From Hymenobacter sp. (GTDB taxonomy: Bacteria > Bacteroidota > Bacteroidia > Cytophagales > Hymenobacteraceae): a stretch of DNA of 64,000 nt. A model generated the notes under the pieces. That model searched no databases. It saw only the letters and a list, made by a program, of their open reading frames with translations, and was not told the origin of the DNA. Shown piece after piece: positions 22,793 to 46,127 of this stretch. Position 1 is the stretch's first letter. The number at the start of each line of letters is the position of its first letter. Position numbers and translations under genes: made by a program. Where the stretch lies: NCBI GenBank assembly GCA_028288445.1, contig JAQBNT010000286.1, positions 57 to 64,056 on the forward strand, written 5' to 3'.

Positions 22793-22887
22793 ATGATTTT
22801 CGTCATAACTACTTCACGGCCATGAACTACATCATGCCATGGCATGATACTAGTCATTTTAGCGAAGGGGATTGGTACTGAATTTTG
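22793..22887 (+). promoter_or_regulatory. CRP/FNR-type promoter: three boxes plus -7 element
   Basis: ATGAT-TTTC-GTCAT (22793), ATGAA-CTAC-ATCAT (22822), ATGAT-ACTA-GTCAT (22844), then GAATTTTG at 22880. Confidence 0.8.
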
Positions 22888-23035
22888 GCCCGCCGGGCTG
22901 ACGGTATTCAGTTGTTGCCCGTGTGGTGATTCGGGGAGGCGGAGAACGGGGAAGCCTGGTTTTTGATTGGCACAGCAATAGCCGCACCCGCCACCCATTC
23001 GCCTCCCTGCTGGTTCCCGTTTCCCGCCTCAGCCC

Positions 23036-23998
23036 ATGGCCGCTCCCGATACCCTGCTTAGTGCCCCGCCACGGGCGGTTGCGGAACGCTGGATGCAGCA
23101 GCTACAGAACGAGCTTTGCCGCCAGCTGACCCTGCTGGATGGGAGTGACGAAGTATTTGAGCACGACGATTGGGAGCACGCCACCGGGCACGGCAGCACC
23201 CGGGTGCTCCAGCACGGCGATGTGCTGGAAAAAGGCGGGGTGGCCTTTTCGGTGTTTTGGGGCGCGCTGGCGGCTGAAACGGCGCGGCAGCTGCGTCTGC
23301 CCAGCCCCACCTGTTTCCTGGCGCGGCTGCACGCGGTGCAGTTTCCGCGCAACCCGTGGGTGCCCATCGCGCATTTGAGCGTGCAGTATGTGGAGGCGGA
23401 GAACGGGGAAGCCTGGTTTGGCGGCAGCCTGGATTTGACGCCGGTGTACGTGGACCGGGCGCAGGCGCACTGGTTTCATGCCCAGCTGGCGGCCCTATGC
23501 CAGGCCCACAACGCCGACTACTACGCCCGGTTCAAGCCGGCGGCCGACAACTACTTTTACCTGCCCCACCGCCAGGCCATGCTGGGCATTGGCGGCCTTT
23601 ATTTCGACCAGCTGGGGGTGAATAAAGACGGCTCCTTTGCCCAGCTTTTTGCCTTTGTCCGGCAGCTGGGCCTCACCTACACCCGGCTCTACAACGTGCT
23701 GGTGCACCAGAATGCCGACCGGCCCTTCAACACCCTCAACAAACGCTGGCAGGTGGTGCGTTGGGGGCATTATGCCGAATTCAGCCTCCTGCTCGACCGC
23801 GATACCCGCCTGGGACTGGCCACAGGCGTTCCGCTCGCAAACACCTTGCTGGGCCTGCCGCCCCAGGCCGAATGGCCCGGCCAGCTGCGCCGGGAACCCA
23901 ACCTGGCCGAAGCCCAGACCCAGCAGTGGCTGCGCCCTGGCGTGAACTGGCTGGCCCCGGACCCGGAGCTGCGGGAAGGCCAACCCTCCGATTCCTGA
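23036..23998 (+). CDS. HemF-like (coproporphyrinogen III oxidase fold) protein with degenerate active site, paralogue 1
   Basis: VLEKGGVAFS, WFGGSLDLTP, YFYLPHR, GIGGLYFD recognisable; H-x-N-x-R is H-L-S-V-Q, RRGRY is RWGHY, DRGT is DRDT. Confidence 0.85.
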   Translation: MAAPDTLLSAPPRAVAERWMQQLQNELCRQLTLLDGSDEVFEHDDWEHATGHGSTRVLQHGDVLEKGGVAFSVFWGALAAETARQLRLPSPTCFLARLHAVQFPRNPWVPIAHLSVQYVEAENGEAWFGGSLDLTPVYVDRAQAHWFHAQLAALCQAHNADYYARFKPAADNYFYLPHRQAMLGIGGLYFDQLGVNKDGSFAQLFAFVRQLGLTYTRLYNVLVHQNADRPFNTLNKRWQVVRWGHYAEFSLLLDRDTRLGLATGVPLANTLLGLPPQAEWPGQLRREPNLAEAQTQQWLRPGVNWLAPDPELREGQPSDS

Positions 23999-24019
23999 AC
24001 CACCTTATCTCCTCCTGCC

Positions 24020-24724
24020 ATGCGCGCGCAAATCTGGTTACCCTGGGTGCTGGCCTCCTCCCTGCTCTGCACCGGCTGCGAAAGCCCTCGAACTGGTGAA
24101 GAAACCGATGCGCCCAGCCGGGCCGTGCCCGTGGCCACGCCGCTGCCCCCTGACACGAGTGGCCGGGCCCACCGCCCACTTCCGCCCGCGCTCCCTCTCG
24201 ACACGGAAGTGGCCGCCGCCTGGACGCGCCTGCAAACCGCCCTGCGGCGGCACGACGCCGCGCAGCTCAACCAGCTCATCGACCCCGCGCTGGGCCTGTG
24301 GGTGGTAGCGGATGGCGACACGGGCTTGGTTATCACGCGGGTGACGGCGGGCACGGCGCTGCGGAAGGCCAGTGCCCGTGCACCGCTGCTGCGCCTGGAG
24401 CAGCAGTTTCAGACGTGCCCCGCGCTGCTGGCTGTGGCCCAGTTTCCGGAAATTGACTGCGGCGACTACGGCCACGGGCGCTCCGGCTTTGCGCGGGATG
24501 GCTGCTTTGCCGGCCCGGCCGCCGACTTTCAGGCCGTGGATGTGTGGTCCCGCGCCCGGCTGGCGGGTGGCACTGCGGCCCAGGGCCGGGCAGCGCAGGC
24601 GCGGGTGGGGCGCACGGTGCTCCATACGCGCAGCGGCTGGCGGTTTCATTTTGCCCAGGCACCGGGCGCGGGCGGGCGCTGGTACCTGGTGTTCGTTGAC
24701 CTGCGCGCGCCCTGCATCAGCTGA
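24020..24724 (+). CDS. hypothetical lipoprotein
   Basis: Signal peptide with lipobox LLCTG-C; 21 bp downstream of hemF-like 1. Confidence 0.75.
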   Translation: MRAQIWLPWVLASSLLCTGCESPRTGEETDAPSRAVPVATPLPPDTSGRAHRPLPPALPLDTEVAAAWTRLQTALRRHDAAQLNQLIDPALGLWVVADGDTGLVITRVTAGTALRKASARAPLLRLEQQFQTCPALLAVAQFPEIDCGDYGHGRSGFARDGCFAGPAADFQAVDVWSRARLAGGTAAQGRAAQARVGRTVLHTRSGWRFHFAQAPGAGGRWYLVFVDLRAPCIS

Positions 24725-24754
24725 AGCGGCCCGCCCGGCCCGCGCGGGGGTCCC

Positions 24755-24821
24755 ATGACCATAATCAGGGGGTTAAACTGATTGGCATCATGCCCGGCGA
24801 CCGGCGATAACAGGAACTTTA
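24755..24821 (+). promoter_or_regulatory. CRP/FNR-type promoter: two boxes plus -7 element
   Basis: ATGAC-CATA-ATCAG (24755), CTGAT-TGGC-ATCAT (24778), GAACTTTA (24814). Confidence 0.8.
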
Positions 24822-24918
24822 GCCCACTTGCTATCGGCGGCGGCCGAGCCGTGCTGCCCGGTTGATACTGGTATTCAAACCAATGTTTTTCAGTCACTTA
24901 TTTTCTTTCTCAGCCGCC

Positions 24919-25215
24919 ATGAAAACAACCACGAAACCGTTTCGAATGCGAAAGCCAGTCCTCCTGCAATGGTCGGCGTTTGGGGCGAGCGTCCTGGCCG
25001 GGCTTACGGCGGGGGTGCTGTGGGCTCCGGCTTCGGGGCAGCACTCCCGCGGCCGGCTGGCCGCCGGCATCCGGGACTGGTCGCGCAGCGTGGCCGGCCG
25101 CTGGAACCTGTGGCAGCCCTGGCCGCTGGCCCGGGCCACCCGGCACCGCGTGCCCAATATTCTGCGCTCCAACGACCTCGCCATGCAGCCCAACCGCCTG
25201 CTGACCGAAGATTGA
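24919..25215 (+). CDS. YtxH-like small protein
   Basis: FGASVLAGLTAGVLWAPASGQHSRGRL resembles the YtxH signature G..AG...G.L.AP..G...R. Confidence 0.65.
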   Translation: MKTTTKPFRMRKPVLLQWSAFGASVLAGLTAGVLWAPASGQHSRGRLAAGIRDWSRSVAGRWNLWQPWPLARATRHRVPNILRSNDLAMQPNRLLTED

Positions 25216-25429
25216 AACCGAGCTACCTCCTTTCCCTCTTGCCATCGAATTCAAAGCGGCCCAACGGCCACTACTCCGGCATGGACGGGCAGTCTGCGAT
25301 GGCTGCCCGCCCTCCGGTAATTACCGCAACGCCGATGTACCCGGCGAGCCACAGCTTCTGGGCGGCCTTCGGCTTTCAGCAAATAAGACTGGCTTTTCTC
25401 CCTTTTTCTGCATTTAACACCCTTGTTCT

Positions 25430-26263
25430 ATGAAACCGGCTTTTGTTGTCCTCACCGATTTATCGGCCGCCGCTGGCGATGCGCAGGCCTACACGGCCCG
25501 TCTGGCCGCCCGCCTGCACGGCTGCATGGTACTGCTGCACGTGTACCTGAACCTGAACCCGCTGCGCGACCCCGAAGAGTTGGTGCTGACCACCGCCGCC
25601 GAGTTGGCCGGCCGCCAGAAAATGCAGACCGACTTGCAGCAGCAGGTGCGCCAACTGCCCGTGCCCGCCGAGGCTGAGCTGTCGTTCGACCCGCTGGCCT
25701 CGGCCGTGGACAAGGCCGTGCGCCGCCACCAGCCGCTGCTGCTGGCCATGGGCCGCGCCGCGCACCCCGGCCGGCTCGACCGCCTGCTGCCCAACGAGGT
25801 GGAGCCCATCCTTCAGGCCACCCACTACCCCCTGCTGCTGGTGCCCGAGGGCTGGGCCGAAACCGAGCTGCCGCAGCGCATGCTGGTGGCCGCCGATGGG
25901 CGCGCCTTCACGCTGGCCGCCCCGGCCCTAGCCCTGCGGGAGCTGCTGCTGACCTTACAGCCCACCACTGCCGTGGCCCACGTAGCCCACGAAACGCACG
26001 GCCCCTCGCACGGCGACGTGGCCCTGAAATCGGTGCTGAGCACGCAGCTATTCGGGCACCTCACCAACAACAGCCTGTATGAAGTGCGCGAGGAAGCCCC
26101 GGCCGACGGCATTCTGCACGCGGCGGCCGAGCTTAACAGCCAGCTGATTGTGATGCTGGCCCGGCCCCACACCTTCCTCGGCGGGGTTTTCCACCGCAGC
26201 GTGACGGCGCAGGTACTGCACCGCAGCCCCGTGCCCGTGCTGGTGCTGCCCACCGTGGCCTGA
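25430..26263 (+). CDS. universal stress protein (tandem USP) 1
   Basis: FVVLTDLS N-terminal strand, PLLLVP, C-terminal FLGGVFHRSVTAQVL..SPVPVLVLP. Confidence 0.92.
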   Translation: MKPAFVVLTDLSAAAGDAQAYTARLAARLHGCMVLLHVYLNLNPLRDPEELVLTTAAELAGRQKMQTDLQQQVRQLPVPAEAELSFDPLASAVDKAVRRHQPLLLAMGRAAHPGRLDRLLPNEVEPILQATHYPLLLVPEGWAETELPQRMLVAADGRAFTLAAPALALRELLLTLQPTTAVAHVAHETHGPSHGDVALKSVLSTQLFGHLTNNSLYEVREEAPADGILHAAAELNSQLIVMLARPHTFLGGVFHRSVTAQVLHRSPVPVLVLPTVA

Positions 26264-26289
26264 GGCTGCGTCACCCTAACTTCTGCCCT

Positions 26290-27228
26290 ATGCTTACGCC
26301 CGTAAAGCCCCATCACCAGCAGCCCCACTCCGTGGAATCGCCCGTGGGGAAAGTCCCGGTTCCTACGCTAATTGTGCTGACCAGTTTTTTCCCGGAAAGC
26401 CGCCGGGCCCTGCGGTTTGCCGCCGAACTGGCCGGCCCGCTGGCGGCCCCGCTGGTGCTGCTGCACATTGATGCGATGGCTGCACAATACCCCAACGTGC
26501 CGATGGCAACCGCGCCCGCCGACCGCCGTGAGCTGCGCCACGACTTGCAGCAGCTCGCCGATGAGTTGCACCGGCCCGCCACCATTGAGCTGGCCAGTGG
26601 GATGCTAAGCCGCGTGTTGGCCGACGCGGCCCACCGCCACGCCCCGGCCCTGTTTGTGCTGGGCCGTCCCGCCGATGAGCAGGCCGATTTTGAGCTGAGC
26701 GAGGCGATGGTGGCCGAGCTGCGCGCCGCCCACCTGCCTCTGCTGCTGGTGCCCGAAGTGTACGCCGGCCCCGACCTGCCCCAGCACCTGGCCGTGGCTT
26801 CCGACGACGAGCCCTTTGCCCTGCACGCCGGGGCGCAGGCCGCCCAGCTCCTGCTGCGCCAGCTGATGCCCAGCCAAGTAACGGTGGTGGCCGCCTCGCC
26901 TTTGCAGGACGACAACGTGTGCGCCGCCGCCCTGCACCACGTCCGCACCAGTGGCCTGCTGCCCACGCCCGGGCCGGTGCCCACCGTGGAGGGCTTTTAC
27001 GCCACCCAAACCGAGCAGGGCCTGCTGCACGCCATTGCCACCACGCAGGCCGACTGGCTGGTGCTGCTGGCCCACCCGCGTCGCTACCTCGACCAGTTGC
27101 TGCACCACAGCATTACGAAACGCATGTTGCGCTGGAGCCCGGTACCGGTGCTGGTGGTGCCCTCCCAAACGGCCCGCAGCCGGCCCTCCAAACGCTCTAC
27201 GCAGCTGAACAACGGCTTCCTTATTTAA
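26290..27228 (+). CDS. universal stress protein 2
   Basis: LIVLTSFF, PLLLVPE, YLDQLLHHSIT..ML..SPVPVLVVP. Confidence 0.9.
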   Translation: MLTPVKPHHQQPHSVESPVGKVPVPTLIVLTSFFPESRRALRFAAELAGPLAAPLVLLHIDAMAAQYPNVPMATAPADRRELRHDLQQLADELHRPATIELASGMLSRVLADAAHRHAPALFVLGRPADEQADFELSEAMVAELRAAHLPLLLVPEVYAGPDLPQHLAVASDDEPFALHAGAQAAQLLLRQLMPSQVTVVAASPLQDDNVCAAALHHVRTSGLLPTPGPVPTVEGFYATQTEQGLLHAIATTQADWLVLLAHPRRYLDQLLHHSITKRMLRWSPVPVLVVPSQTARSRPSKRSTQLNNGFLI

Positions 27229-27271
27229 CAGGAAACAACCAGTATTAAACTAATAATAAACGCCTTAAGCA

Positions 27272-27688
27272 ATGGAATCCATCACCACATCCGCCCCCAA
27301 GATGGCGATAGCCGAAACCACGGCCGCTTTGTCCAATTCAGCGCTCACGCCCTCGGTGGCTGAACGGCTGGCGCAGCTTCTGAGTTCGTCGGTTAATGCC
27401 CAAACCATCTACGGCACGCCCGTGGAGCGCGACAGCGTGACGGTGATTCCCGTGGCGCAGGCGGCCTATGGCTTTGGCGGGGGCAGCGGCACCGGCCCCA
27501 ACGCGCAGGGCGGCACGGGCGGCGGCGGCGGCGTGCGCCTCAAGCCGGTGGGCTTCATCGAGCTGAAAAAAGGCCGCAGCCGCTTCCGGCCCATCCGGCG
27601 CTCGGTAGTCCCGCTGGTGGCCGTGAGCGGGCTGCTGGCACTGCTGCTGCTACGCGCCGTGCCCCGGCTGTTGTCGAACGGCCGCTAG
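27272..27688 (+). CDS. GerW/YtfJ family (spore germination-like) protein
   Basis: IYGTPVERDSVTVIPVAQAAYGFGGGSG...GGGGGV.LKPVGFIE signature. Confidence 0.85.
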   Translation: MESITTSAPKMAIAETTAALSNSALTPSVAERLAQLLSSSVNAQTIYGTPVERDSVTVIPVAQAAYGFGGGSGTGPNAQGGTGGGGGVRLKPVGFIELKKGRSRFRPIRRSVVPLVAVSGLLALLLLRAVPRLLSNGR

Positions 27689-27792
27689 CAGGCGGGGGCT
27701 TGGTTCGGCGGCAGTTTCTACCGGGAGTGCATCGTAAAAAACGGATGTGATTACGGAGATAGTAATGGTCAAGATTGAAATCAGCCATGAGG

Positions 27793-27836
27793 TTGATTCT
27801 CGTCATACTCCGCGCCGAATGGTTTTTCTATTTTTA
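27793..27836 (+). promoter_or_regulatory. CRP/FNR-type promoter: box plus -7 element
   Basis: TTGAT-TCTC-GTCAT (27793), TATTTTTA (27829); weak upstream box AAGAT-TGAA-ATCAG at 27771. Confidence 0.72.
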
Positions 27837-27900: not shown

Positions 27901-28167
27901 ATGAAAAACACCGCGCACCGACAACCGCAAAAGACGACCGAGGATGCTCGGGTCCACCTGACCGGCCTGAGCGCCAAGTACGTGCGCAAGCTGGAAAAGC
28001 CCTTGGTAAACACGCTGCGGAAGCTCAGCCGCAAGTTCAGCAAGCTGCTGGATAAAAACCGCAAGGCCGCCCGCAAGGCCACTCGCGAGGCGGCCAGATT
28101 CCTGGTGAAGCGGCTGTATAAATCCGTGGAGTGGCGCGGCGCTGGCCCGGCCCTGCGGCCGGCCTGA
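27901..28167 (+). CDS. small highly basic hypothetical protein
   Basis: 88 aa, Lys/Arg-rich helical sequence, GC3-biased codons, first gene behind a regulon promoter. Confidence 0.7.
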   Translation: MKNTAHRQPQKTTEDARVHLTGLSAKYVRKLEKPLVNTLRKLSRKFSKLLDKNRKAARKATREAARFLVKRLYKSVEWRGAGPALRPA

Positions 28168-28223
28168 CCCCTACAGGCGTGGGCGCGGCTGCCGTGGTGG
28201 CGCGCCCGGCCCTGCTGCGCGCC

Positions 28224-30239
28224 ATGAACCACTCTCTACTCTACGATTTGCTGGTTATCCTGCTGTTGTCGGTGAGCGTGACGCTGCTGTTCAACCGCAT
28301 CCGGCTGCCGTCCATCATCGGGTTTCTGGTGACGGGGATGCTGGCCGGGCCCTACGCGCTGGGCCTGGTGAAGGTGCCCGCCAAGGTGGACCAGGTCGCC
28401 GAAATGGGCATTATCATGCTCATGTTCACCATCGGGCTGGAGTTTTCGGTGCAGAACCTGGGCCGGATGCGGCGGGCGGTTTTTCTGGGGGGCACGTTGC
28501 AGGTGGGCCTCACGGTGGCGGCTGTGGCGGTGCTGGGCATGGCCATGGGCAGTTCGCTCGGCTCAGCCGTGTTCTGGGGCTTTTTGCTGTCGCTCAGCAG
28601 CACGGCCATTGTGCTCAAGCTGATGCAGGAGCGCATGGAAGTGGAGTCGGTGCACGGGCAGATTGTGCTGGCCATCCTGCTGTTTCAGGATTTGGCGGTG
28701 GTGCCCATGATGCTGCTTATTCCGCTGCTGAGCGGGCAGGGCAGCGGCGGCAACCAATTTCTGGTGCTGGGCCTGATGGTGGCCAAAATCCTGGCCGTGG
28801 TGGCCATGGTGGGGCTGAGCGCGCGCTACCTCATGCCGCGCCTGCTGCTGGCCGTAGCCCGCACCCGCAGCCGCGAGCTGTTCCTGCTCACCATCATCGG
28901 CACCTGTTTGGGCGTGGCCGTGCTCACGGAACAGGCGGGGCTGTCGCTGGCGCTGGGGGCCTTTTTGGCGGGGCTCATCATCTCGGAATCCGAATACAGC
29001 TACGAGGCCGTGAGCAGCGTGCTGCCGTTTCGGGAGGTGTTTGCGAGCTTCTTTTTCGTGTCCATCGGCATGTTGTTCGATGTGCACGTGCTACTGGCCC
29101 ATCCAGTTCAAATCGTGCTGCTCACCATCGGAGTCATCTTGCTTAAAATGCTGCTGACGCCGGTTGCCACGGCCTTTTTGCGCGCGCCGGTGGGCGAAAT
29201 TCTGTTTACCGGCATGGCCCTGGCGCAGGTGGGCGAGTTCGCGTTTGTGCTCTCGCGGGAGGGCCTGCGAGCCGGCCTCATCAGGCCCGATAGCTACCAG
29301 ATTTTCCTCGCTATTTCGGTGCTCACCATGTGCTGCACGCCCGGCGTGATGGCCCTGGCGCGGCCCGTGGTGGCGTGGGTGATGCGCCTGCCGTGGCCCC
29401 TGGAGCTGGAGCAGCGCCTGCACGTGGCACCTGTCCCGCCCCCGCCGGCCGTGGCCACAGCCGGGCCGCCGCTCACCGACCACCTCGTCATCGTGGGCTA
29501 CGGCCTGAACGGGCGCAACCTGGTGCGGGCCGCCAAATTTGCCAAGCTCCCCTACATCATCCTCGAAGCCGACGCCGACAAAGTGCACCGGGGCCTGAAG
29601 CGCGGCGAGCGCATGATGTACGGCGACGTAACCCACGAGCACGTGCTGGAGCACCTGGGCGTGGTACGGGCCCGGGTGGTGATGGTCGCCATCTCCGACC
29701 CCGCCGCCGCGCTGCGGGCCGTGGCCGCCATCCGGCGGCTCAACCCCTTGGTGTGCATTCTGGTGCGCACGCTGTACGTGTACGAACGCAAAAACCTCTA
29801 CCACGTAGGTGCTACCGAGGTAATTGCGCAGGAACAGGAAACCTCCATGGAGGTACTGGCGCACGTGCTGGCCCGTTTTCTGGTGCCGCAGGACGACATC
29901 GAAAAGCTCATCGGCGAGCTGCGGCACGGCAGCCACGCCATGCTGCGGCCCCACTCGCTCACCAAAGCCGCCTGGGCCAGCATTCACCTCGGGCTGACCG
30001 GAGCCGAGTTGGCCGCCGTGCCCGTCGAGGCCGACCCGCAAACCTGCCTGCACGGCCAGGTTTTGTCGGAGGCCGAGCTGCGGCGACGCTTCGGGCTCTG
30101 CCTGCTGGCCATCCGGCGCGACGGCGCGATGCTGGAACCGGTGACGAACGAAACGGCCATTCTCCTGCACGACACGCTCTACGTTTTCGGCAAGCCGGCC
30201 CAGGTAGCGCAGCTGCTACAGGTGGTGGAAGCGGCCTGA
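28224..30239 (+). CDS. CPA2 (KefB/KefC/YbaL-like) cation:proton antiporter with RCK N and C domains
   Basis: AEMGIIMLMFTIGLE, LSLSSTAIV, ILLFQDL, LGAFLAG, FFFVSIG, QVGEFAFV, IVGYGLNG (GxGxxG), C-terminal TrkA-C. Confidence 0.93.
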   Translation: MNHSLLYDLLVILLLSVSVTLLFNRIRLPSIIGFLVTGMLAGPYALGLVKVPAKVDQVAEMGIIMLMFTIGLEFSVQNLGRMRRAVFLGGTLQVGLTVAAVAVLGMAMGSSLGSAVFWGFLLSLSSTAIVLKLMQERMEVESVHGQIVLAILLFQDLAVVPMMLLIPLLSGQGSGGNQFLVLGLMVAKILAVVAMVGLSARYLMPRLLLAVARTRSRELFLLTIIGTCLGVAVLTEQAGLSLALGAFLAGLIISESEYSYEAVSSVLPFREVFASFFFVSIGMLFDVHVLLAHPVQIVLLTIGVILLKMLLTPVATAFLRAPVGEILFTGMALAQVGEFAFVLSREGLRAGLIRPDSYQIFLAISVLTMCCTPGVMALARPVVAWVMRLPWPLELEQRLHVAPVPPPPAVATAGPPLTDHLVIVGYGLNGRNLVRAAKFAKLPYIILEADADKVHRGLKRGERMMYGDVTHEHVLEHLGVVRARVVMVAISDPAAALRAVAAIRRLNPLVCILVRTLYVYERKNLYHVGATEVIAQEQETSMEVLAHVLARFLVPQDDIEKLIGELRHGSHAMLRPHSLTKAAWASIHLGLTGAELAAVPVEADPQTCLHGQVLSEAELRRRFGLCLLAIRRDGAMLEPVTNETAILLHDTLYVFGKPAQVAQLLQVVEAA

Positions 30240-30255
30240 ACAGGGCGCTAAAATC

Positions 30256-31038
30256 CTAAAGCAACCGCAGCTGGTCGACCAGGATTTCCTGCACATCGGT
30301 GGGGCGGATGATGCCGCGGCGGGGGCGGTCCAGCTCCAGCGTGATGAAAACCACCAACGTCACCATCAGGTGGAAGGTGACGATGGCCATCCAGTCGAAC
30401 CGGGCGCGGTTGGCGCTCACGTAGCCCGAAAAAAAGGCCGTGATGAGGGCAATGATGAACAGCATATACATCACGGCATCGGGCACATGCACGCGCAGCG
30501 AGGCTTGGCGGGTCACCCCGTTCACCGTCACTTCGTTCAGTGCATCCACCATTTTATCGGTCGCCATGGCGTACTGCGGGTTGCCCGACAGTCGCACCAC
30601 CCGGTGCCACACCTGGTTGCTGGCCGTATCGGCATGGACCAGCGTGGCCCTGATGGTCGTCGAATCATCGGGGGCCTCGCCGAAGGCAATGCGCGCCTCC
30701 AGGTAGCGGCGCAGCTCCCGCCGGAACCCGGCGCGCTCGGGGTTGGGGTAGAGGTCGGCCCGCAACACCACGGTGCGGAAGCTGGCGGCCAGGGCCACCA
30801 GGGCATCGCGTCGGGCCTCGAAGCGGGCGCTGGCCATCGAAAACGAGAAGGCCAGCAACAAGCCCTGCAACGCCAGCAGCGAAGCCACGGCCACCGACTG
30901 CTCGGTGGTGTTGGTGATGTAGGATTTGCGGCGGCGGCCCTCCCACAAGCCGGCCCAGGTCAGGAGCAGCAGCAGGCCGAAGAGCATGAATACCAGCAGG
31001 CGCGAATCGGTGCGGTACAGCAGTGAATATTCTCTCAT
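30256..31038 (-). CDS. DUF4239-like (bestrophin-like) membrane protein
   Basis: LLALQGLLLAFSFSMASARFEARR, R.ELRRY, TLELDRPRRG motifs; start could be 31131 or 31038. Confidence 0.75.
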   Translation of the reverse strand: MREYSLLYRTDSRLLVFMLFGLLLLLTWAGLWEGRRRKSYITNTTEQSVAVASLLALQGLLLAFSFSMASARFEARRDALVALAASFRTVVLRADLYPNPERAGFRRELRRYLEARIAFGEAPDDSTTIRATLVHADTASNQVWHRVVRLSGNPQYAMATDKMVDALNEVTVNGVTRQASLRVHVPDAVMYMLFIIALITAFFSGYVSANRARFDWMAIVTFHLMVTLVVFITLELDRPRRGIIRPTDVQEILVDQLRLL

Positions 31039-31350: not shown

Positions 31351-31477
31351 CGAAGAGTTTGCCGCGCACGGCCGCGCCGCTCCTGCCCGTCCAATCTGCC
31401 GCTGTGCGAAGGCCGCTTCGGCCCGGCTAGCCATCTCCCACGCCGCCTTTTTTCCCTCTTCTAATTCCCGTAAGCTC

Positions 31478-39190: not shown

Positions 39191-40220
39191 GGACAACGAC
39201 ATCCTGCGCGAAAACACGGCCGAAATCTTGGAGCTGGCCGGCTACGCCGTGCTCACGGCCGAAAACGGCAAAGTGGGCGTGGAGAAAGCCTTGGCCACCA
39301 AGCCCGATTTGGTGGTGTGCGACATCATGATGCCCGTGCTGGACGGCTACGGCGTGCTGCACATCTTTAGCCAGAACCCGCCGCTGGCCGGCGTGCCCTT
39401 CATCTTCCTCACCGCCAAAACCGAGCGCACGGACCAGCGCCGCGGCATGGAGCTGGGGGCCGACGACTACCTGACCAAGCCCTTCGAGGAAACCGAGCTG
39501 CTGAGCGCCATCAGCAGCCGCCTCCAGCGCTTCCGGCAGCTGCAGCCCGACTACGACCTGCGCGCCCCCGACGGCTTAGGCAGCTTTCTGGACGATGCCA
39601 CCGCCGTGGCCAGCCTGCACAGCCTCACCCTGGACCGCCGGCCCCACGCGCTGCGCAAAAAGCAGGTGCTTTATGCCGAGGACGAAGAGGCCACCCGGCT
39701 CTATTTTGTGGAGAGTGGGCGGGTGAAAACCGTGCGCCGCACGGCCAGCGGCAAGGAATTAATCACGGGTGTGTATGGCCCCGGCGAGTTTTTCGGCTAC
39801 CTGCCGCTGCTCCAGCACCGGTCGCACAGCGACTCGGCCGTGGTGCTCGATGATGCCCAGGTGCTCTACATTCCGCAGAAGGATTTTGAGCTGCTGCTCC
39901 ATTCGCACCCGGACGTGGGGTGGCAGTTCATCCGGCTGCTGGCCGGCCAGGTAGAAGAGCGGGAACGGCAGCTGCTGGGCATGGCCTACGACTCGTTGCG
40001 CCGCCGCGTGGCCAGCACCCTGCTGCGCCTGCAGGAGCAGGCCGGCAATGGCGCGGCCGCCATCCGGTTCTCGCGCGATGACCTGGCCGCCGTGGTCGGC
40101 ACCACCCCGGAATCGCTCATCCGCACCCTGAGCGAGTTTAAGCAGGACGGCCTGATTGAGCTCACCCCCAAAAGCATTCACGTCCTACAGCCCGACAAGC
40201 TGCACACGCCTAATTGGTAG
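39168..40220 (+). CDS. hybrid response regulator: REC + cNMP-binding + CRP/FNR HTH
   Basis: ILLIEDN, VCDIMMP..DG, FLTAK; CRP domain YFVESGRVK, GPGEFFG; HTH SRDDLAAVVGTTPESLIRTLSEFKQDGLI; overlaps the kinase by 23 bp. Confidence 0.95.
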   Translation: MKTILLIEDNDILRENTAEILELAGYAVLTAENGKVGVEKALATKPDLVVCDIMMPVLDGYGVLHIFSQNPPLAGVPFIFLTAKTERTDQRRGMELGADDYLTKPFEETELLSAISSRLQRFRQLQPDYDLRAPDGLGSFLDDATAVASLHSLTLDRRPHALRKKQVLYAEDEEATRLYFVESGRVKTVRRTASGKELITGVYGPGEFFGYLPLLQHRSHSDSAVVLDDAQVLYIPQKDFELLLHSHPDVGWQFIRLLAGQVEERERQLLGMAYDSLRRRVASTLLRLQEQAGNGAAAIRFSRDDLAAVVGTTPESLIRTLSEFKQDGLIELTPKSIHVLQPDKLHTPNW

Positions 40221-40264: not shown

Positions 40265-40330
40265 CTGACAGGAATCATCCTGCAAGGTGATACGCGTCAG
40301 GGTGGTATTAGCGCAAAGGCAGGAGCTTTG
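40265..40330 (+). promoter_or_regulatory. CRP/FNR-type promoter: two boxes plus -7 element
   Basis: CTGAC-AGGA-ATCAT (40265), GTGAT-ACGC-GTCAG (40287), GAGCTTTG (40323). Confidence 0.82.
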
Positions 40331-40466
40331 CCCAATTAACCGGCGGTGCTGATTACCTAGTATGGTTTACCTAGTATGGTCCGCAGGCTCTGGCCCCCGG
40401 TTTGGTGGGGTTGGCTGGCGGGGCTTCTCGCAGTTTCTGTTACCATCATAAGTGCATTGAGCAGCC

Positions 40467-41405
40467 ATGAAACAGCAGGCTATTTCGACATCGGCTTTTA
40501 CGCCGCGCCCGGAGGTCGAGAATTGGATGCGGGAATTCCAGGACTGGCTATGCCACCGACTGGAGCTGGCGGATGGCGGCAGCCGGTTTGTGCACGAAGA
40601 ATGGACGCACCCCGGCGGCGGTGGGGGAATCACCTCCACGCTTCAGCACGGGGCCGTGCTGGAGAAGGCGGGCGTGTCCTTTTCGGCCGTGTGGGACCAG
40701 CTGAGCGAGCCGATGGCCCGCCAGCTCCAGGTGAAAGACCGGCACTACTACACCGCTGATGTGAACGTGGGCCTGCATCCGCACAGCCCCATGGTGCCCA
40801 TTTCGCATCTCAACGTGCGGTATTTCGAAGCCCGCACGGGCGAGGCCTGGTTTGCCGGCAGCCTGGACCTGACCCCGGTTTACGTGGATGTGGTGCAGGC
40901 CCGCTGGTTTCACGAGCAGATTCGGGCTATGTGCCACCGCCACGATACCGGCTACTACCCGCGCTTCAAAGCCGGGGCCGATGCCCATTTCTACCTGCCC
41001 CACCGGGGCGAAACGCGGGGCGTGGGCGGCCTGTATTTCGAGCAGCTTATGGTGGAGCGCGACGGCTTGTTTGAGGAGCTGCTGGCCTTCGTGCAGGACG
41101 TGGGCGAGGTGTACGGCCGCGCCTACGGCACCATCATGCGCCAGAATGCCCACCTGCCCTACGCCGCGCCCGAGAAGCGCTGGCAGCAGCAGCGCCGCGC
41201 CCGCTGCGCCGAATTCAACCTGACCGTGGACCACCCCAGCCGCTTCGAGCTGGCCGCCCACGGCCCGGAAGGTTTCGTCCTCAGCCTACCTCCACGGGCC
41301 GAGTGGCACAATGCCCCTGCTCCCGCCCCCGACTCGGCCGAAGCCCGGACCCAGCAATGGCTGCGCCCCGGCGTGGACTGGATAACGCCCACCGGCGCGG
41401 CCTGA
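40467..41405 (+). CDS. HemF-like protein with degenerate active site, paralogue 2
   Basis: GGGGG, VLEKAGVSFS, LHPHSPMVPISHLNVRYFE, RGETRGVGGL kept; GVS is DVN, RRGRYVEF is RRARCAEF, DRGT.FGL is DHPSRFEL. Confidence 0.87.
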   Translation: MKQQAISTSAFTPRPEVENWMREFQDWLCHRLELADGGSRFVHEEWTHPGGGGGITSTLQHGAVLEKAGVSFSAVWDQLSEPMARQLQVKDRHYYTADVNVGLHPHSPMVPISHLNVRYFEARTGEAWFAGSLDLTPVYVDVVQARWFHEQIRAMCHRHDTGYYPRFKAGADAHFYLPHRGETRGVGGLYFEQLMVERDGLFEELLAFVQDVGEVYGRAYGTIMRQNAHLPYAAPEKRWQQQRRARCAEFNLTVDHPSRFELAAHGPEGFVLSLPPRAEWHNAPAPAPDSAEARTQQWLRPGVDWITPTGAA

Positions 41406-41459
41406 GCGCACCCGCCGCTCGCACAGTACGCATCCTGCTCCCCATCAACCCCCAAGCTC

Positions 41460-42416
41460 ATGTCCCTGGTAGCCACCCTGACGCTGAACCCGGCCCTGGA
41501 TACGAGCACCTCCGTGGCGGGCATCGTGCCCGACCAGAAGCTGCACTGCGCCGCCCCCAAAACCGAGGCCGGCGGCGGCGGCATCAACGTGTCGCGGGGC
41601 CTGCACCGGCTGGGCACGCCATCGGTGGCTGTGTACCCGGCGGGGGGGCACACGGGAGTGCTGTTGGAAGCGCTGCTCACGGCCGAAGGCATTGCCTCCT
41701 GCGTAATTCCGACCCAAAGCGCGGTGCGCGAAAACTTTGTGGTGGTGGATACCGCCACCCACCAGCAGTACCGTTTCGGCATGCCCGGCGCGCCCCTCAC
41801 CGACGTTGAGCAGCAGCAGATACTGGCGGCGCTGCACCGGCTGGTACCGCTGCCCGACTTCGTGGTGCTGAGCGGCAGCCTGCCGCCCGGCGTGCCACCC
41901 GCATTCCTGGCCCAGGTGGCGCGGCAGGCCCGCGAGGCGGGTAGCAGGGTGGTGGCCGATACGACCGGGCCGGCCATGCTGGCCGTTATCGAGGCCGGGG
42001 CCTACCTCATCAAGCCCAACCTGGGCGAGCTGAGCCAGTTGGCCGGCGTGCCCGAGCTGGACAACGCCGGTGTGGTGGCCATCGCCCGGCAGCTCATCGG
42101 CGCGGGCCGCTGCGAAATCGTGGTGGTGTCGATGGGCCCGCAGGGGGCCTGTCTCGTCACCCGCGACCTGGAAGACCAGATTTCGGCCCCGGTCGTGAAG
42201 CGACGCAGCACCGTGGGGGCTGGCGATAGCATGGTGGCTGGCATCGTGCACGCGCTGGTGCTCGGGCAGCCCCTGCGCGAAGCTGTGCGCCTGGGCGTGG
42301 CCTGCGGCACGGCCGCCACCATGAACCCCGGCACCGAGCTGTTCCACCCCGCCGATGCGGAAAAGCTCTATCGCTGCCTGCTGCAGGCCATGCCCGCCCC
42401 GCACCCCACCGCCTGA
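41460..42416 (+). CDS. pfkB: 1-phosphofructokinase family hexose kinase (PfkB/Pfk-2)
   Basis: TLTLNPALD, GGGGINVSR, SGSLPPGVP, IKPNLGEL, STVGAGDSMVAG. Confidence 0.93.
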   Translation: MSLVATLTLNPALDTSTSVAGIVPDQKLHCAAPKTEAGGGGINVSRGLHRLGTPSVAVYPAGGHTGVLLEALLTAEGIASCVIPTQSAVRENFVVVDTATHQQYRFGMPGAPLTDVEQQQILAALHRLVPLPDFVVLSGSLPPGVPPAFLAQVARQAREAGSRVVADTTGPAMLAVIEAGAYLIKPNLGELSQLAGVPELDNAGVVAIARQLIGAGRCEIVVVSMGPQGACLVTRDLEDQISAPVVKRRSTVGAGDSMVAGIVHALVLGQPLREAVRLGVACGTAATMNPGTELFHPADAEKLYRCLLQAMPAPHPTA

Positions 42417-42456: not shown

Positions 42457-43344
42457 CTACGCCTCGGCGGCATCTGAGGCAATGGACGCATCCTGCGGCA
42501 CCTCGGCGGCGGTGGGCAGCACCAGCACTGGCACGGGGCATTGCTCCACGAGCCGGGCCGTGATGCTGCGATGAAACAAGTCGCTCATGAAGCTGCGCTC
42601 GCGGGCCAGGGTGATGACCAGGTCGGCCCCAACTTCCTGCGTGGCGATGAGCATGCCCTCGGCGTAGTCGCTGTTGAGGTAGCCCCGCAGCTCGGGGTGG
42701 GTGAAGTCGACCAGGCCGCTGACGCGCACGGCCCGCAGGGCGGCCGCGCAGCCATCGTCGTCCTCCACCCCGTCCGACACATGGGCTACCACCACGCCGC
42801 CCGTGCCCAAGTGGGCCAGCAGGGGGCGCAACGCCTGAGCAGCCGGCCCGAGGGCAAACGGCTCACGGTCGGCCGCAATCAGGAAGCGGTGCGGCGGCTG
42901 GTTGGCGGACGTGGTGGTGGGCACGGCCAGCACCGGGTAGTGGCCGGCGCGTAGCAGCTCGGCGCACAGGGCCGTCATGCCAGCGTAGTCGGGATGGTCG
43001 GCATCGGGCTGGCCCAGCACAAACAGGGCCGGGGCGTAGCGGGAAGCCAGCTCGCGGGCGATGTCGGGGAGCAGGTCGGTGGCCATTTCCACGGCGGCGG
43101 GCACGTGCAGGCTCCGCGCCAGCTGGTGCAGGGCCACCACGGTATCGGACTGGCCGGCCAGCTCCTGGCGGTGGTACTTCTCCCCCACCGCGCCCACCAG
43201 CTCGTAGGGGTCGAGCAGCGACGCCCGGTTGACGTGCAGCAACACCAGTTGGGCCTGCACGGCCTGCGCCAGCTTATCGGCGTAGTGAATGGCGTGCCGG
43301 GCGGGCTCGTAGAAACCGGACAGCACGATGAGCGTGAGGGGCAT
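42457..43344 (-). CDS. universal stress protein 6
   Basis: LIVLSGFY, YPVLAVP, SFMSDLFHRSITARLVEQCPVPVLVLP. Confidence 0.9.
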   Translation of the reverse strand: MPLTLIVLSGFYEPARHAIHYADKLAQAVQAQLVLLHVNRASLLDPYELVGAVGEKYHRQELAGQSDTVVALHQLARSLHVPAAVEMATDLLPDIARELASRYAPALFVLGQPDADHPDYAGMTALCAELLRAGHYPVLAVPTTTSANQPPHRFLIAADREPFALGPAAQALRPLLAHLGTGGVVVAHVSDGVEDDDGCAAALRAVRVSGLVDFTHPELRGYLNSDYAEGMLIATQEVGADLVITLARERSFMSDLFHRSITARLVEQCPVPVLVLPTAAEVPQDASIASDAAEA

Positions 43345-43358
43345 GGCGAAAGCGGGTT

Positions 43359-44243
43359 TTAGTGAGTGACGGGGATGAAGGCCCGCGTCTCGACCGGGGC
43401 AAAAACTGGGGCGGAAATGTGGGCCGAGAGCAGCAGTACGGGCACCGGCGTGTGGCGCAGCACATAGTCGATAACACTGCCGCTGAACAGCTTGTGTGCC
43501 CAGCCGTGGCCCTGGTCGAGCAGGGCCACCAGGTCGGCTTTCAGGTCATGCACGGCCTCCAGAATGCCCGAGCCGGGCTCCTCGCCCACTACTTTGTGCA
43601 GGCCGCAGCCGGCCATGCCAGCGGCCAGGCCGCTGTGCTGCGCGGCCCGCAGGCCGTCCCAGCCGCCGGGGCTGTCTGCTTCCGATAGCACGGTGACGGC
43701 TACCACGTCCAGGCCCAGCCCGTCGAGCAGGGGCGCGACGGCCCTAGCAGCCGGGGCCAGCCGGAAGGGCCGGTCCTCCACGGCCAGGGCCAGGCGGCGG
43801 GGCTGGTGCAGGGCGGCATCGGGCAGGTGCTCGGGCACGAGCAGCAGCGGGCAACCCGTTTGGTGCGGCAGCGACGCAGCGCGGTTGCTGAACCACTCGT
43901 CGAGGAAGCCATTGGTGGCGGTGAGCCCGGCCACGATGAGCATGGGCTGATATTTTTCGATGGCTTGGGCAATGGCCCCGGGCCAGTCGGCTTCCAGCAC
44001 TTCGGCGGTGGTGGGCACGGGCATGGTTTCGGCTACATGCCGCAGGCAGCGGCAGGTTTCGGGCACGTAGCCCTCATCCTTGGCCGGCAGCACCATGCCG
44101 AATTCCGTGACCACGGGCACCGGCAGAAACACGTGCACGAGGTGGAGCTCGGCATCCAGCGGGGCGGCTAGCACGGCGGCGTAGGCTCGGGCCCGCTCGG
44201 CGGCGAGCGAGAAGTCAGTCAGCACAACGATGTTGGGGAACAT
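43359..44243 (-). CDS. universal stress protein 7
   Basis: MFPNIVVLTDFS, CPLLLVPE, KLFSGSVIDYVLRHTPVPVLLL. Confidence 0.92.
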   Translation of the reverse strand: MFPNIVVLTDFSLAAERARAYAAVLAAPLDAELHLVHVFLPVPVVTEFGMVLPAKDEGYVPETCRCLRHVAETMPVPTTAEVLEADWPGAIAQAIEKYQPMLIVAGLTATNGFLDEWFSNRAASLPHQTGCPLLLVPEHLPDAALHQPRRLALAVEDRPFRLAPAARAVAPLLDGLGLDVVAVTVLSEADSPGGWDGLRAAQHSGLAAGMAGCGLHKVVGEEPGSGILEAVHDLKADLVALLDQGHGWAHKLFSGSVIDYVLRHTPVPVLLLSAHISAPVFAPVETRAFIPVTH

Positions 44244-44296
44244 GACAGACAATCAGCTAAAAGTGAGACAACAGCAATGAGCAGCGCACCGAGGCT

Positions 44297-45811
44297 TTAG
44301 CGAATGGCCGTGGCCGCGTGGGTGGCCACGACCTGCCGGGCAGCTTCCTTTTCGGCTTCGGCAGCCAACCCGGCCAGGGCGGGCAGGGTGAACAGGCGGC
44401 CGCGCAGCACCACCGCCTGAATCAGGCGCAGGTTGCGGATGTCGTCGAGCGGATTGCCATTGAGCAGCACCACATCGGCCGCGTAGGCGGGGCGAATGCG
44501 GCCCGTGTCGAAGCCGTGGCCGGTGGCCATGGCCGGGTTCACGGTGCCGGCGCGCAGGGCTTCGGCCGGCGTGAGGCCAAGGGCCACCAGGCGCTCCAGC
44601 TCATCGTGCAGACTACCGCCGTAGAAGAGGTTTGGCGTGCCCGAGCCGGCATTGGAGCCCGCCACCAGGCGCACGCCCAGCCGCCCAAACGTGGCCACCA
44701 TGCCGCGCTGCAAGGAATCGGCGACGCGGATTTTAGCCAGCCTAGAGGCCGACAGGTGCGGCCGGTCGTGGGCGGCCTGCGCCCACTGCCGGCGCAGGTT
44801 GGCCGGCACCGAGCGAAAGCGCGGGTCTTCCGGGGCGGGGTCGTGCCGCAGGTCGAAGTCGTGGGCCACCAGCCCGGGCATCACCGCAGTGCGGTTCTGC
44901 ATCAGGGCCTGGGCCAGGGCCGTGCAACGGGCGGGGCTGAAGCTGGCCACGATGTCCTTTTGCTGAGCTTTGATGCCGGCTTGCAGCGTGGGCAGGGGCC
45001 GGGGGCCGGCCAGGGCCGTGGCCCGCGCCGCCACCAATTCAGCCTCATGGTCGGAGCAGGCCAGCAGCAGCTTGTCGGCGTGCTCGATGCTATGCTGACC
45101 GGCCGCAATGGCATCGAGCACCGGCACGGCCTCGGGCACGGTGCCAGCCAGATGCACCCGCCCCAGACGGGCAGCAGCGGCAATCCCCGCAAAGGCCTCG
45201 GGCGACAGGTACGCGCCGGCTTGCAGGCTGCACCAGCCCGTTCGCATCAGGGCTTCGGCCCGGGCGTAGCCCTCGGCGCGGGTGGCCGTGAGGGTCAGAC
45301 TGGTGCTGGCATCGGCCGAACCGTCGAGGACCGGGCCGGCCAGCTCAAGGTGCGGCCCCACCCGCTCGCCGGTTTCCAGGGCCTGGTAGGTGCTTAGCAG
45401 GTCGGCCAAGGGCCGGGCCGAACTCACGTCGCGGATGCTGGTGATGCCGTGGGCCACGTACAGCGGCAGGGCCAGCTGCTCATCGGCGGCCGAGGCCAGG
45501 GCGTGGGTGTGGAAATCCCAAAGGCCGGGCACCAGGTATTTGCCGGTGCCGTCCAGGGTGGGCACGCCCCGGCCGGCCGGCAGCCACTGGCCCACCGACA
45601 CAATGAAGCCGTCGCGCAGCACCACGTTGCGGTGGGTTTCGATTTCGCCCAGGTCAACGTCCACCACGTTCACGTTGGTAATCACCAGCTCATCGACCGG
45701 CGGGGGCGCGATGACCGGGGGAATAATGACCACCGCCGGACGCTGCCCGGCAGCCAAGTGCCCCGAGCAGCTCAGCCCCAGCAGCAACCCCAGAAAAAGA
45801 CGCGGTTTCAT
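44297..45811 (-). CDS. secreted amidohydrolase-fold protein with degenerate metal site
   Basis: Signal peptide; LDGTGKYLVPGLWDFHTH, SIEH, SLHDEL..LV..GLTP.EAL, ADVVLL.GNPL.DI; Lys, His and Asp ligand positions read Q, T and N. Confidence 0.88.
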   Translation of the reverse strand: MKPRLFLGLLLGLSCSGHLAAGQRPAVVIIPPVIAPPPVDELVITNVNVVDVDLGEIETHRNVVLRDGFIVSVGQWLPAGRGVPTLDGTGKYLVPGLWDFHTHALASAADEQLALPLYVAHGITSIRDVSSARPLADLLSTYQALETGERVGPHLELAGPVLDGSADASTSLTLTATRAEGYARAEALMRTGWCSLQAGAYLSPEAFAGIAAAARLGRVHLAGTVPEAVPVLDAIAAGQHSIEHADKLLLACSDHEAELVAARATALAGPRPLPTLQAGIKAQQKDIVASFSPARCTALAQALMQNRTAVMPGLVAHDFDLRHDPAPEDPRFRSVPANLRRQWAQAAHDRPHLSASRLAKIRVADSLQRGMVATFGRLGVRLVAGSNAGSGTPNLFYGGSLHDELERLVALGLTPAEALRAGTVNPAMATGHGFDTGRIRPAYAADVVLLNGNPLDDIRNLRLIQAVVLRGRLFTLPALAGLAAEAEKEAARQVVATHAATAIR

Positions 45812-45868
45812 GGCCGGATACAGGTTAAAAAGTAGGGTTGCAGACAAAACCAGTGAAGCCCGGCCAAT

Positions 45869-46051
45869 TCAGATGCCTTCAAACAGGCTGACGGATTCCA
45901 GGTATTCGGGCACGGCCACGCCGGGCCACTGGCGCTGGATGGCGGCCGGTTTTTCGGCGGCTGTCGTTGTCATCAGGCGCAGGCCCGCGAAATCGAACCC
46001 GCTGCCGTGCTCCAGCCGATACACGCTTAACAGCAAATTACAGGTTGACAT
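45869..46051 (-). CDS. small hypothetical protein (60 aa)
   Basis: GC3-biased codons; ATG lies about 30 nt downstream of the predicted minus-strand regulon promoter. Confidence 0.45.
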   Translation of the reverse strand: MSTCNLLLSVYRLEHGSGFDFAGLRLMTTTAAEKPAAIQRQWPGVAVPEYLESVSLFEGI

Positions 46052-46083
46052 TCATCGCCTTGAAATAGAGATGATTTGTACCA

Positions 46084-46127
46084 CAATGTTCGTCAACCCA
46101 CGCGCCCGAACCCATGACAAAAATCAA
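46084..46127 (-). promoter_or_regulatory. CRP/FNR-type promoter for the small ORF-amidohydrolase-USP7-USP6 unit
   Basis: Box ATGAC-AAAA-ATCAA (46114-46127); minus-strand GAACATTG at 46091-46084, 22 bp away (one extra mismatch). Confidence 0.6.

Follow-up and report, generated by a model that had tools for sequence, protein, structure and literature searches.

Crp/Fnr-type boxes at a fixed distance from the -7 element in a Hymenobacter gene island and their candidate readers, receiver-Crp/Fnr hybrid regulators

A 64-kb stretch of Hymenobacter sp. DNA (64,000 nt of contig JAQBNT010000286.1, assembly GCA_028288445.1; hereafter the window) contained, between 22.8 and 46.1 kb, eight units in which an inverted repeat of the Crp/Fnr type, the box, stood exactly 22 bp from an nAnnTTT(G/A) 8-mer. 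This region is most likely a stress and low-energy island with activator-dependent sigma-A promoters, and one of its operons encodes a PAS histidine kinase and a response regulator in which a receiver domain is fused to a Crp/Fnr module. The explanation preferred here, and considered probable as a whole, is that the units are class II-type activator-dependent promoters, which would be read by phosphorylated hybrids of this kind and would form a shared regulon. How transcription is activated in Bacteroidota is little understood, since their sigma-A relies on -33 and -7 elements in place of -35 and -10 elements.

Box, spacer and -7 element

The eight units had been proposed in a first-pass annotation made from the letters of the DNA, and all of them were recovered in place, with the spacing exact, when the flanks were read directly. 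The 22 bp are counted from a 14-bp box and equal 23 nt between its 12-bp core and the 8-mer. The proximal boxes were of the TGA-N6-TCA inverted-repeat type, seven of the eight being exact and one (31308-31319, TTCA) carrying a single mismatch; the extra mismatch that the annotation had reported for the 8-mer of the last unit was likewise present. In the following list, boxes are given by their 12-bp cores and the start sites are predictions:

Promoter 1, 22794-22887, plus strand: partner box 22823-22834 (one mismatch), proximal box 22845-22856, -7 element GAATTTTG at 22880-22887, predicted transcription start site (TSS) at about 22892
Promoter 2, 24756-24821, plus strand: partner box 24756-24767, proximal box 24779-24790, -7 element GAACTTTA at 24814-24821, predicted TSS at about 24826
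Promoter 3, 27772-27836, plus strand: partner box 27772-27783 (one mismatch), proximal box 27794-27805, -7 element TATTTTTA at 27829-27836
Promoter 4, 31286-31350, plus strand: partner box 31286-31297 (exact), proximal box 31308-31319 (TGATTGTATTCA, one mismatch), -7 element GAAATTTG at 31343-31350
Promoter 5 (putatively autoregulatory), 37316-37380, plus strand: partner box 37316-37327, proximal box 37338-37349, -7 element TACCTTTG at 37373-37380
Promoter 6, 40266-40330, plus strand: partner box 40266-40277, proximal box 40288-40299, -7 element GAGCTTTG at 40323-40330
Promoter 7, 37099-37141, minus strand: box 37130-37141, -7 element CAGTTTTA at 37099-37106, no partner box
Promoter 8, 46084-46126, minus strand: box 46115-46126, -7 element GAACATTG at 46084-46091 (one mismatch), no partner box
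Candidate weak ninth promoter, 31159-31201, minus strand: box 31190-31201 (one mismatch), 23 nt, GATATTCA (one mismatch), 5' of a bestrophin-like gene (30256-31131)

The TGAY-N4-RTCA core occurred 13 times in the window, as against 1.23 expected from dinucleotide-preserving shuffles of the window (n = 100), none of which reached 13, and 12 of the 13 copies fell within 22.8-46.1 kb. Over the whole assembly (5.49 Mb in 311 contigs, 62% G+C, the window lying on contig C216), the exact composite of core and 8-mer was found 11 times at the 23-nt gap, six times in the window and five times on three other contigs, and only zero to two times at each of the 16 other gaps in the range 15-31 (0, 1, 0, 0, 0, 2, 0, 0, 1, 0, 0, 0, 0, 1, 1 and 0). 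The first-pass annotation had conceded that its proposal would fall if the same spacing were equally common elsewhere; the counts at the control gaps place the pattern far above chance. An origin by chance, or from base composition where AT-rich intergenic DNA interrupts a GC-rich genome, would accord with the genome-wide number of bare boxes, which were not enriched (196 versus 173 expected from mononucleotide composition). Such a chance origin is nevertheless refuted by the spacing-specific excess and has a practically negligible probability in view also of the excess of boxes over the shuffles and the retention of the pattern in other genera of different GC content. When one mismatch was allowed in the genome-wide composite scan, the 23-nt gap was not in excess over other gaps, and mismatch sites were accepted only if a partner box and the gene context backed them. 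A relaxed rescan of the whole window gave no comparable unit outside the island and one marginal extra candidate, that of the bestrophin-like gene, which by the genome-wide mismatch statistics is at noise level, a possible but weak promoter. The thirteenth exact box of the window (20138-20149), the only one outside the island, lay inside a chondroitinase-B/PL6-like gene (18990-21305), lacked a correctly spaced -7 element and probably arose by chance.

The same spacing was found in other genomes, whose loci were mostly analysed by pattern search rather than by weight matrices. In 20-kb loci around orthologous regulators of the genus and the order, about 36 composites had the 23-nt gap, versus 4, 1, 0 and 1 at gaps of 22, 24, 21 and 25 nt, and a further 80 loci (Hymenobacter, Spirosoma, Rudanella, Arcicella, Chitinophagaceae, Cyclobacteriaceae and others) yielded 45 composites versus 1 and 3 in the controls. 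In 19 whole Hymenobacter genomes, 92 composites were counted, versus 8 at a gap of 25 nt and 10 with the reversed pattern.

Upstream of the genes of this genome, TAnnTTTG occurred 306 times in sense and 130 times in antisense orientation, whereas the same 8-mer with G, C or A as its first base was not enriched on the sense strand. The sense-strand enrichment thus identifies the 8-mer as the Bacteroidota sigma-A -7 box, with T as the house consensus at its first base. The first-pass annotation had remarked that most of the -7 elements are non-consensus at this base, and it was indeed other than T in six of the eight promoters of the window and in 70 of the 92 Hymenobacter sites (G 48, T 22, C 18, A 4). 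This systematic departure of the regulated elements from the house consensus appears to support activator dependence. In the same 92 sites, the base after the box was T in 49, and the spacer held no conserved -33-like TTTG.

In the TSS map of Flavobacterium psychrophilum, TAnnTTTG is located at -12 to -5 (PMC9723704). Because the 23-nt gap is fixed, a -7 box in this position would put the 12-bp core at -47 to -36, with its centre computed at -41.5, and the centre of the partner box at -63.5 or -64.5, about two helical turns further 5', which agrees with the class II site near -41 and upstream site near -63 that had been suggested from the letters. In Escherichia coli, 22 bp lie between a 14-bp FNR site at -41.5 and the -10 hexamer, and the units of the window reproduced this distance. 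Starts predicted in the same way, some 5 nt beyond the 8-mer, would fall near 27841, 31355, 37385 and 40335 for promoters 3, 4, 5 and 6, and near 37094 and 46079 for promoters 7 and 8 on the minus strand. The boxes are very likely functional Crp/Fnr-type sites at the class II position. The classical class II geometry would then be kept to the base pair with a Bacteroidota -7 box, and Crp/Fnr regulons could be read throughout the class by one simple rule (box, 23 nt, TAnnTTTG).

With the class II FNR, Anr and FixK promoters of Proteobacteria (TTGAT-N4-ATCAA at -41.5), the units shared the core TGAT-N4-ATCA, the 22 bp from the 14-bp site to the downstream element, the predicted centre and a weak core promoter, and the genes behind them resembled the targets of those regulons (cbb3 oxidase, ccoI/fixI, heme synthesis, universal stress proteins and a small heat-shock protein). 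They differed in that the downstream element was a TAnnTTTG -7 box and not a -10 hexamer, the outer T and A of the box were not conserved, TGAC/GTCA half-sites were as common as TGAT/ATCA, and a second box at exactly 22-23 bp was the rule.

Partner boxes with at most one mismatch preceded six of the eight promoters of the window, at an offset of 22 bp in five cases and 23 bp in one; the first-pass annotation had the offset right and counted five of them. Genome-wide, 12 of the 16 box-bearing promoters had a partner, at 22 bp in 10 cases and 23 bp in two, and within the range of 12-70 bp no other offset was found at these 16 promoters except for a single box at 51 bp. The latter is a third exact box of promoter 1 (22794-22805), which lies 51 bp 5' of the proximal box, off the 22-bp register and without a -7 element in either direction. 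Exact tandem boxes in the related loci were spaced by 22 bp in 21 cases and by 23 bp in 10, versus one case at 21 bp and none at 24 bp. The intergenic region that separates the kinase gene from a divergent small gene could be aligned in nine relatives and read -7 element, 22 bp, box, 10 bp, box, 22 bp and -7 element, a bidirectional design in which each box is proximal for one direction and distal for the other. The region upstream of the kinase gene in the window failed to align with those of the relatives, its intergenic layout being different.

Some Crp/Fnr proteins repress from positions overlapping promoter elements such as the -33 region. A core at -47 to -36 would overlap the expected Bacteroidota -33 element, so that the boxes might also be conceived as operators from which the regulator covers the -33 region and blocks RNA polymerase. 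In more than 100 sites, however, the distance to the -7 element is constant to the base pair, which a steric block would not need, and this reading is further opposed by the systematic departure of the -7 elements from the house consensus, the lack of conservation of a -33 TTTG and the phasing of the partner box at two helical turns. Repression is thus very improbable, and activation from the boxes is the reading followed below.

The hybrid regulator and other candidate readers of the boxes

Promoter 5 precedes the genes of a two-component pair:

37574-39190, plus strand: PAS histidine kinase, promoter 5 operon
39168-40220, plus strand: hybrid response regulator, promoter 5 operon, overlapping the kinase gene by 23 nt

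The regulator (350 aa) matched the receiver family REC (PF00072, E = 5.4e-26), cNMP_binding (PF00027, E = 6e-22) and HTH_Crp_2 (PF13545, E = 4.8e-17). In an alignment of 35 homologues with identities down to 46%, residues D9, D52, K104-P105, E315 and R319 were invariant, and S316 and I318 were at least 90% conserved; the recognition helix P-E-S-L-I-R comprises residues 314-319. An AlphaFold2 model (mean predicted local distance difference test score 82.9; predicted template modelling score 0.42, owing to a flexible linker at 127-138) contained the receiver, the strands of a beta-roll (160-236), a long helix (248-292) and a helix-turn-helix (303-326). Its top Foldseek matches were CAP, MtbCRP, GlxR and FNR, with E-values down to 1.6e-18, and no solved structure covering both the receiver and the Crp module was found in this comparison. 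The closest public relatives were from Hymenobacter monticola (81% identity) and H. artigasi (80%), and the near matches all belonged to Hymenobacteraceae and Spirosomataceae. Of 301 Bacteroidota genomes sampled evenly, 40 had the hybrid, as did 34 of 143 genera; it may thus represent an uncharacterised, widespread type of regulator in which a phospho-receiver replaces the Fe-S or cyclic AMP (cAMP) switch.

The regulator contains one cysteine, C51, which belongs to the receiver domain; this excludes an Fe-S cluster of the FNR type, and the protein is not an FNR in the strict sense. Nor does it resemble CRP in its ligand contacts: the stretch that we take to correspond to the cAMP-contacting Glu and Arg-Ser, placed by the general CRP motif and not by alignment, reads FFGY...HSDSAV, with Tyr and Asp there. 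Because the cluster is excluded and the cAMP-contact positions are changed, phosphorylation of D52 is the likely switch. With E. coli FNR the system shares the Crp/Fnr fold, Glu and Arg in the recognition helix, the core of the box and its predicted class II placement, whereas the regulator lacks the N-terminal cysteine cluster of that protein and has a receiver domain instead, so that oxygen sensing through Fe-S is ruled out. The first-pass annotation had called the recognition helix FNR/FixK-like. Its E-x-x-x-R reading was correct and the boxes do have FNR/FixK half-sites, but E-x3-R occurs throughout the superfamily, and the Ser that precedes Arg in FNR, where it reads the outer T/A of the box, is replaced by Ile, which fits with boxes lacking a conserved outer T. 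Activation geometry and DNA specificity are classical. What departs from the classical pattern is the fusion to a receiver, the setting at a -7 element, the obligatory 22-bp tandem and a three-fold paralogy (see below). A literature search returned no paper on hybrids of a receiver with a Crp/Fnr module, nor on boxes of the FNR type at -7 promoters of Bacteroidota, most subscription journals being outside that search.

The mechanism proposed is as follows. A dimer of the hybrid regulator would bind the boxes through Glu315 and Arg319 of the recognition helix, and the dimer at -41.5 would recruit or activate RNA polymerase like the class II activators CRP and FNR, with the upstream dimer adding cooperative binding or a further contact with the polymerase. 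Binding or activation would be gated by phosphorylation of Asp52 by the adjacent FixL-like PAS kinase, and by neither an Fe-S cluster nor a cyclic nucleotide. Since the operon of the kinase and the regulator carries a full tandem box promoter of the same kind, the autoregulation suggested by the first-pass annotation is plausible, and it would be positive.

Three pairs of kinase and hybrid regulator were found in the genome, in the window, on C116 (62113-64765, minus strand) and on C256 (2030-4736, plus strand, between a thioredoxin-like gene and ccoI/ccoN). The hybrids of C116 and C256 were 79% and 70% identical to that of the window, and the recognition helix, ESLIRTLSEFK, was identical in all three. 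Only one further gene with a confident Crp-type helix-turn-helix was present, which encodes a plain FNR-like protein of 254 aa on C84 (21370-22134, minus strand) with the helix ETASR and cysteines at positions 14, 21 and 34 of its longest open reading frame (ORF). The genome scan for remote regulon members that the first-pass annotation had recommended yielded sites on four other contigs:

C84: sites preceding an Hsp20 gene and an L,D-transpeptidase gene
C116: sites preceding a thioredoxin-like small gene and three universal stress protein (USP) genes
C256: sites preceding the genes of a CcoI/FixI-type P-type ATPase and a thioredoxin-like protein, and ccoN (one mismatch in the box, with a partner box)
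C228: site preceding a USP gene, 45120-45992

The ccoN gene is split over two contig ends (C256, 7990-8391; C228, 53915-54790), and C256 and C228 are therefore neighbours in the genome. Given three pairs with identical DNA-reading helices, the boxes are probably a shared regulon, which would be fed by up to three sensors and would reach the cbb3 oxidase (ccoN), the CcoI/FixI ATPase, Hsp20, further USPs and thioredoxin-like genes on other contigs. The regulon had been described as directly readable and as that of a single regulator. This was not borne out: because the helices of the three hybrids are identical, the local regulator is not established as the sole reader, and with the plain FNR-like protein also present the assignment of boxes to regulators is ambiguous.

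All 11 exact composites adjoined a gene for a Crp-type regulator, and nine of them adjoined a hybrid pair. The plain FNR-like gene on C84 was flanked by composite sites for Hsp20, for a 138-aa unclassified gene and for a YkuD L,D-transpeptidase, and its orthologues in Hymenobacter genomes without a hybrid keep an adjacent composite site. It may be supposed from this arrangement that the boxes are mainly read by the C84 protein, with a putative Fe-S cluster, and that the hybrids bind other DNA or a subset of the boxes. Such a reading would be in line with the exact composites 5' of the Hsp20 and YkuD genes, with the location of the few composites of hybrid-less Hymenobacter genomes beside a plain Crp gene, with the FNR-type Ser before Arg in the helix, and with the equal frequency of the composite in Bacteroidia genomes lacking a hybrid. 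On the other hand, none of the nine exact sites clustered at the three hybrid pairs is near the plain gene, the number of sites within the genus follows the presence of the hybrid (on average 6.2 composites per Hymenobacter genome with a hybrid and 2.0 without), most of some 100 related loci have boxes on the flanks of the hybrid operon, and E315 and R319 of the hybrid are invariant. A main role of the plain protein is accordingly improbable, and the hybrids are likely to be the main readers of the boxes. The local regulator is a strong candidate, and cross-regulation among the pairs is likely.

Several points weigh against the view that phosphorylated hybrids activate these promoters. Promoter activity, start sites and regulator binding are predictions from the sequence; the -41.5 position depends on a -7 box placed by data from a different family of the phylum, and class I sites are classically centred at -61.5, 2 bp from the partner centre of -63.5. 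The geometry is also shared by genomes without the hybrid: among 75 sampled genomes of the class, the median number of composites was 10 with a hybrid and 10.5 without (Mann-Whitney p = 0.08; reversed-pattern control 1.6). The phylogenetic profile thus held inside the genus and failed at class level, so that the geometry was rejected as a signature of the hybrid, and composites that are equally frequent without it imply that box, 23 nt and -7 element are a general Crp/Fnr activation geometry in the class. As the three hybrids have identical helices, the local one is not proven to be the acting regulator, and the C84 protein, standing among such sites, could read the same boxes. No canonical 23-nt composite was found before the two paralogous kinase operons on C116 and C256. 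Finally, the kinase of the window lacks the proximal His of FixL, which makes oxygen sensing by this pair doubtful.

The kinase and the signal

The kinase possesses HisKA and HATPase_c domains and is encoded directly beside the regulator, a pairing repeated in both paralogous loci. The top nine PDB matches of its second PAS domain were FixL heme domains, followed by DosP (E = 6e-11), and the distal Arg of FixL was kept in the alignment. The proximal His of FixL stands seven residues after a conserved Pro (P+7). In the corresponding stretch of the window kinase (37980-38010, residues 186-194 approximately), which reads VPDAMAHYL, P+7 is Leu and a His occurs at P+5; the C116 kinase (VPDALRNRY) has Tyr at P+7 and His at neither position, and only the C256 kinase (VPNAVGRRH) has His at P+7 as in FixL. 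From these residues, the pair that adjoins the cbb3 genes may plausibly sense oxygen, whereas for the pair of the window this is uncertain.

In the proposed mechanism the most likely signal would be oxygen or respiratory limitation, and for oxygen limitation in particular the chances are about even. By analogy, the target gene content matches low-oxygen regulons of the FixK/Anr type (ccoN, CcoI, Hsp20 and USPs). In F. psychrophilum, cbb3 oxidase and heme synthesis are induced under oxygen limitation (PMC9723704). It is also conceivable, though rather unlikely, that the hybrids bind the architecture as described and respond through a heme-less PAS domain to something other than oxygen, the regulon being one of general dormancy or stress; the cue might then be, for example, redox state, energy or stationary phase, desiccation or light-related stress. 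Hymenobacter species are generally known as strict aerobes of dry and irradiated habitats, which would suit such cues, as would the Leu at P+7, the variation of the His position among all three paralogues, and an island made up mostly of USP, BON, YtfJ and ion-exchanger genes and not of respiratory genes. Opposed to this are the best structural relatives of the PAS domain, all of which are heme-PAS oxygen sensors, the retained distal Arg, and the occurrence of the same boxes before ccoN and ccoI, which are classical low-oxygen targets. Moreover, with three regulators of one DNA specificity, an oxygen-sensing paralogue would reach the island too.

The preferred arrangement of kinase, hybrid and boxes resembles the FixL-FixJ-FixK cascade of rhizobia, Caulobacter and Burkholderia, in which a FixL-like PAS kinase likewise comes first and a Crp/Fnr protein on FixK-like boxes last, with a similar regulon. 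In Burkholderia dolosa, FixL/J activates fixK under low oxygen (PMC9104464). The present system differs from that cascade in consisting of two proteins, the receiver being fused to the Crp/Fnr module, so that neither a LuxR-type FixJ nor a transcriptional relay is needed; in addition, its kinase is without a His at the FixL proximal position and three parallel pairs share the DNA specificity.

The DosS/DosT-DosR system of Mycobacterium and the lxa locus of Burkholderia cenocepacia also have features in common with the island, namely a kinase of the heme-sensor type (Dos) and a clustered, USP-rich set of genes with Hsp20, and both are tied to the non-growing survival of an aerobe at low oxygen. 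Unlike the regulator described here, DosR is of the NarL/LuxR type and recognizes a different box, and the lxa regulator is not known to be a receiver-Crp hybrid. Six USPs of the lxa locus are induced by low oxygen (PMC9104464).

On a more tentative level, one may speculate that a FixL-FixJ-FixK cascade shortened to one step serves aerobic Bacteroidota in their response to low oxygen or in dormancy. Phosphorylation of the fused receiver would make two dimers bind cooperatively to boxes in a 22-bp phase, centred at -41.5 and -63.5 in sigma-A -7 promoters, and in this Hymenobacter three sensor kinases that differ in their PAS pockets would act on one regulon through regulators whose DNA-reading helices are identical. 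If so, the shared box regulon would serve the three kinases as a signal integrator. With about 16 promoters and three kinase/regulator pairs, the genome offers material for studying the sensing and survival of oxygen or energy limitation by strictly aerobic Bacteroidota of soil.

Genes and operons of the island

Gene families were assigned from Pfam and NCBIfam. The genes presumably controlled by the remaining promoters were as follows:

Operon 1, 23036-24724, plus strand: HemF-like coproporphyrinogen oxidase (23036-23998); 234-aa ORF (24020-24724)
Operon 2, 24828-27688, plus strand: small ORF or ORFs (24828-25433); tandem-USP genes (25430-26263, 26290-27228); YtfJ/GerW-like gene (27272-27688)
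Operon 3, 27901-30239, plus strand: 88-aa basic protein (ATG at 27901, end at 28167); Na+/H+ exchanger with TrkA-N/C domains (28131-30239)
Operon 4, 31478-34837, plus strand: protein with six BON domains (31478-32935); tandem-USP genes (32971-33798, 33989-34837)
Gene of promoter 7, 36121-36977, minus strand: USP, likely start ATG at 36975-36977
Operon 6, 40467-42416, plus strand: second HemF-like gene (40467-41405); PfkB-family sugar kinase (41460-42416)
Operon 8, 42457-45811, minus strand: secreted protein of amidohydrolase fold (44297-45811); USP genes (43359-44252, 42457-43344)

The HemF-like product of 23036-23998 matched PF01218 with E = 1.8e-78, its NCBIfam score being under the equivalog cut-off, and the 234-aa ORF behind it had no family match in Pfam or NCBIfam and a third-position GC content of 0.82. 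In 24828-25433, which also had no family match, third-position GC indicated coding in one frame at about 24950-25160 (ORF 24862-25215) and in another at about 25190-25330, so that this segment would be either two small genes or one gene with a frameshift. The TSS predicted at about 24826 would leave a TTG start at 24828 leaderless. The USP gene of promoter 7 was assigned the ATG at 36975-36977 (MQPTFVVMTDF..., as in USP paralogues) and not a start at 37197, because the latter lies upstream of the promoter. An MlaE gene (35247-36017), which may or may not be part of operon 4, is located downstream of its USP genes, and the amidohydrolase-fold protein begins at its ATG with an N-terminus resembling a signal peptide.

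Sigma-70-type promoter matches numbered 1 versus 2.7 expected, in line with Bacteroidota, and predicted intrinsic terminators were uninformative for operon limits in the window (18 versus 16.1 expected). Several predicted 5' leaders were long, about 120-270 nt (22887-23036, 31350-31478, 37380-37574, 40330-40467 and 45811-46084), and an Rfam scan of the whole window, which sought leader RNAs in the long 5' untranslated regions, gave no match. Divergent from promoter 8 is a pyruvate-kinase-like gene of 674 aa (46142-48166; NF011314, 763 bits). Only 15 bp separate the box at 46115 from the annotated ATG of this gene, towards which no -7 element is directed; the family match begins at residue 62, and the real start may be later. 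The housekeeping copy of the HemF-like genes may be a third one, which lies on C228 (46864-47808).

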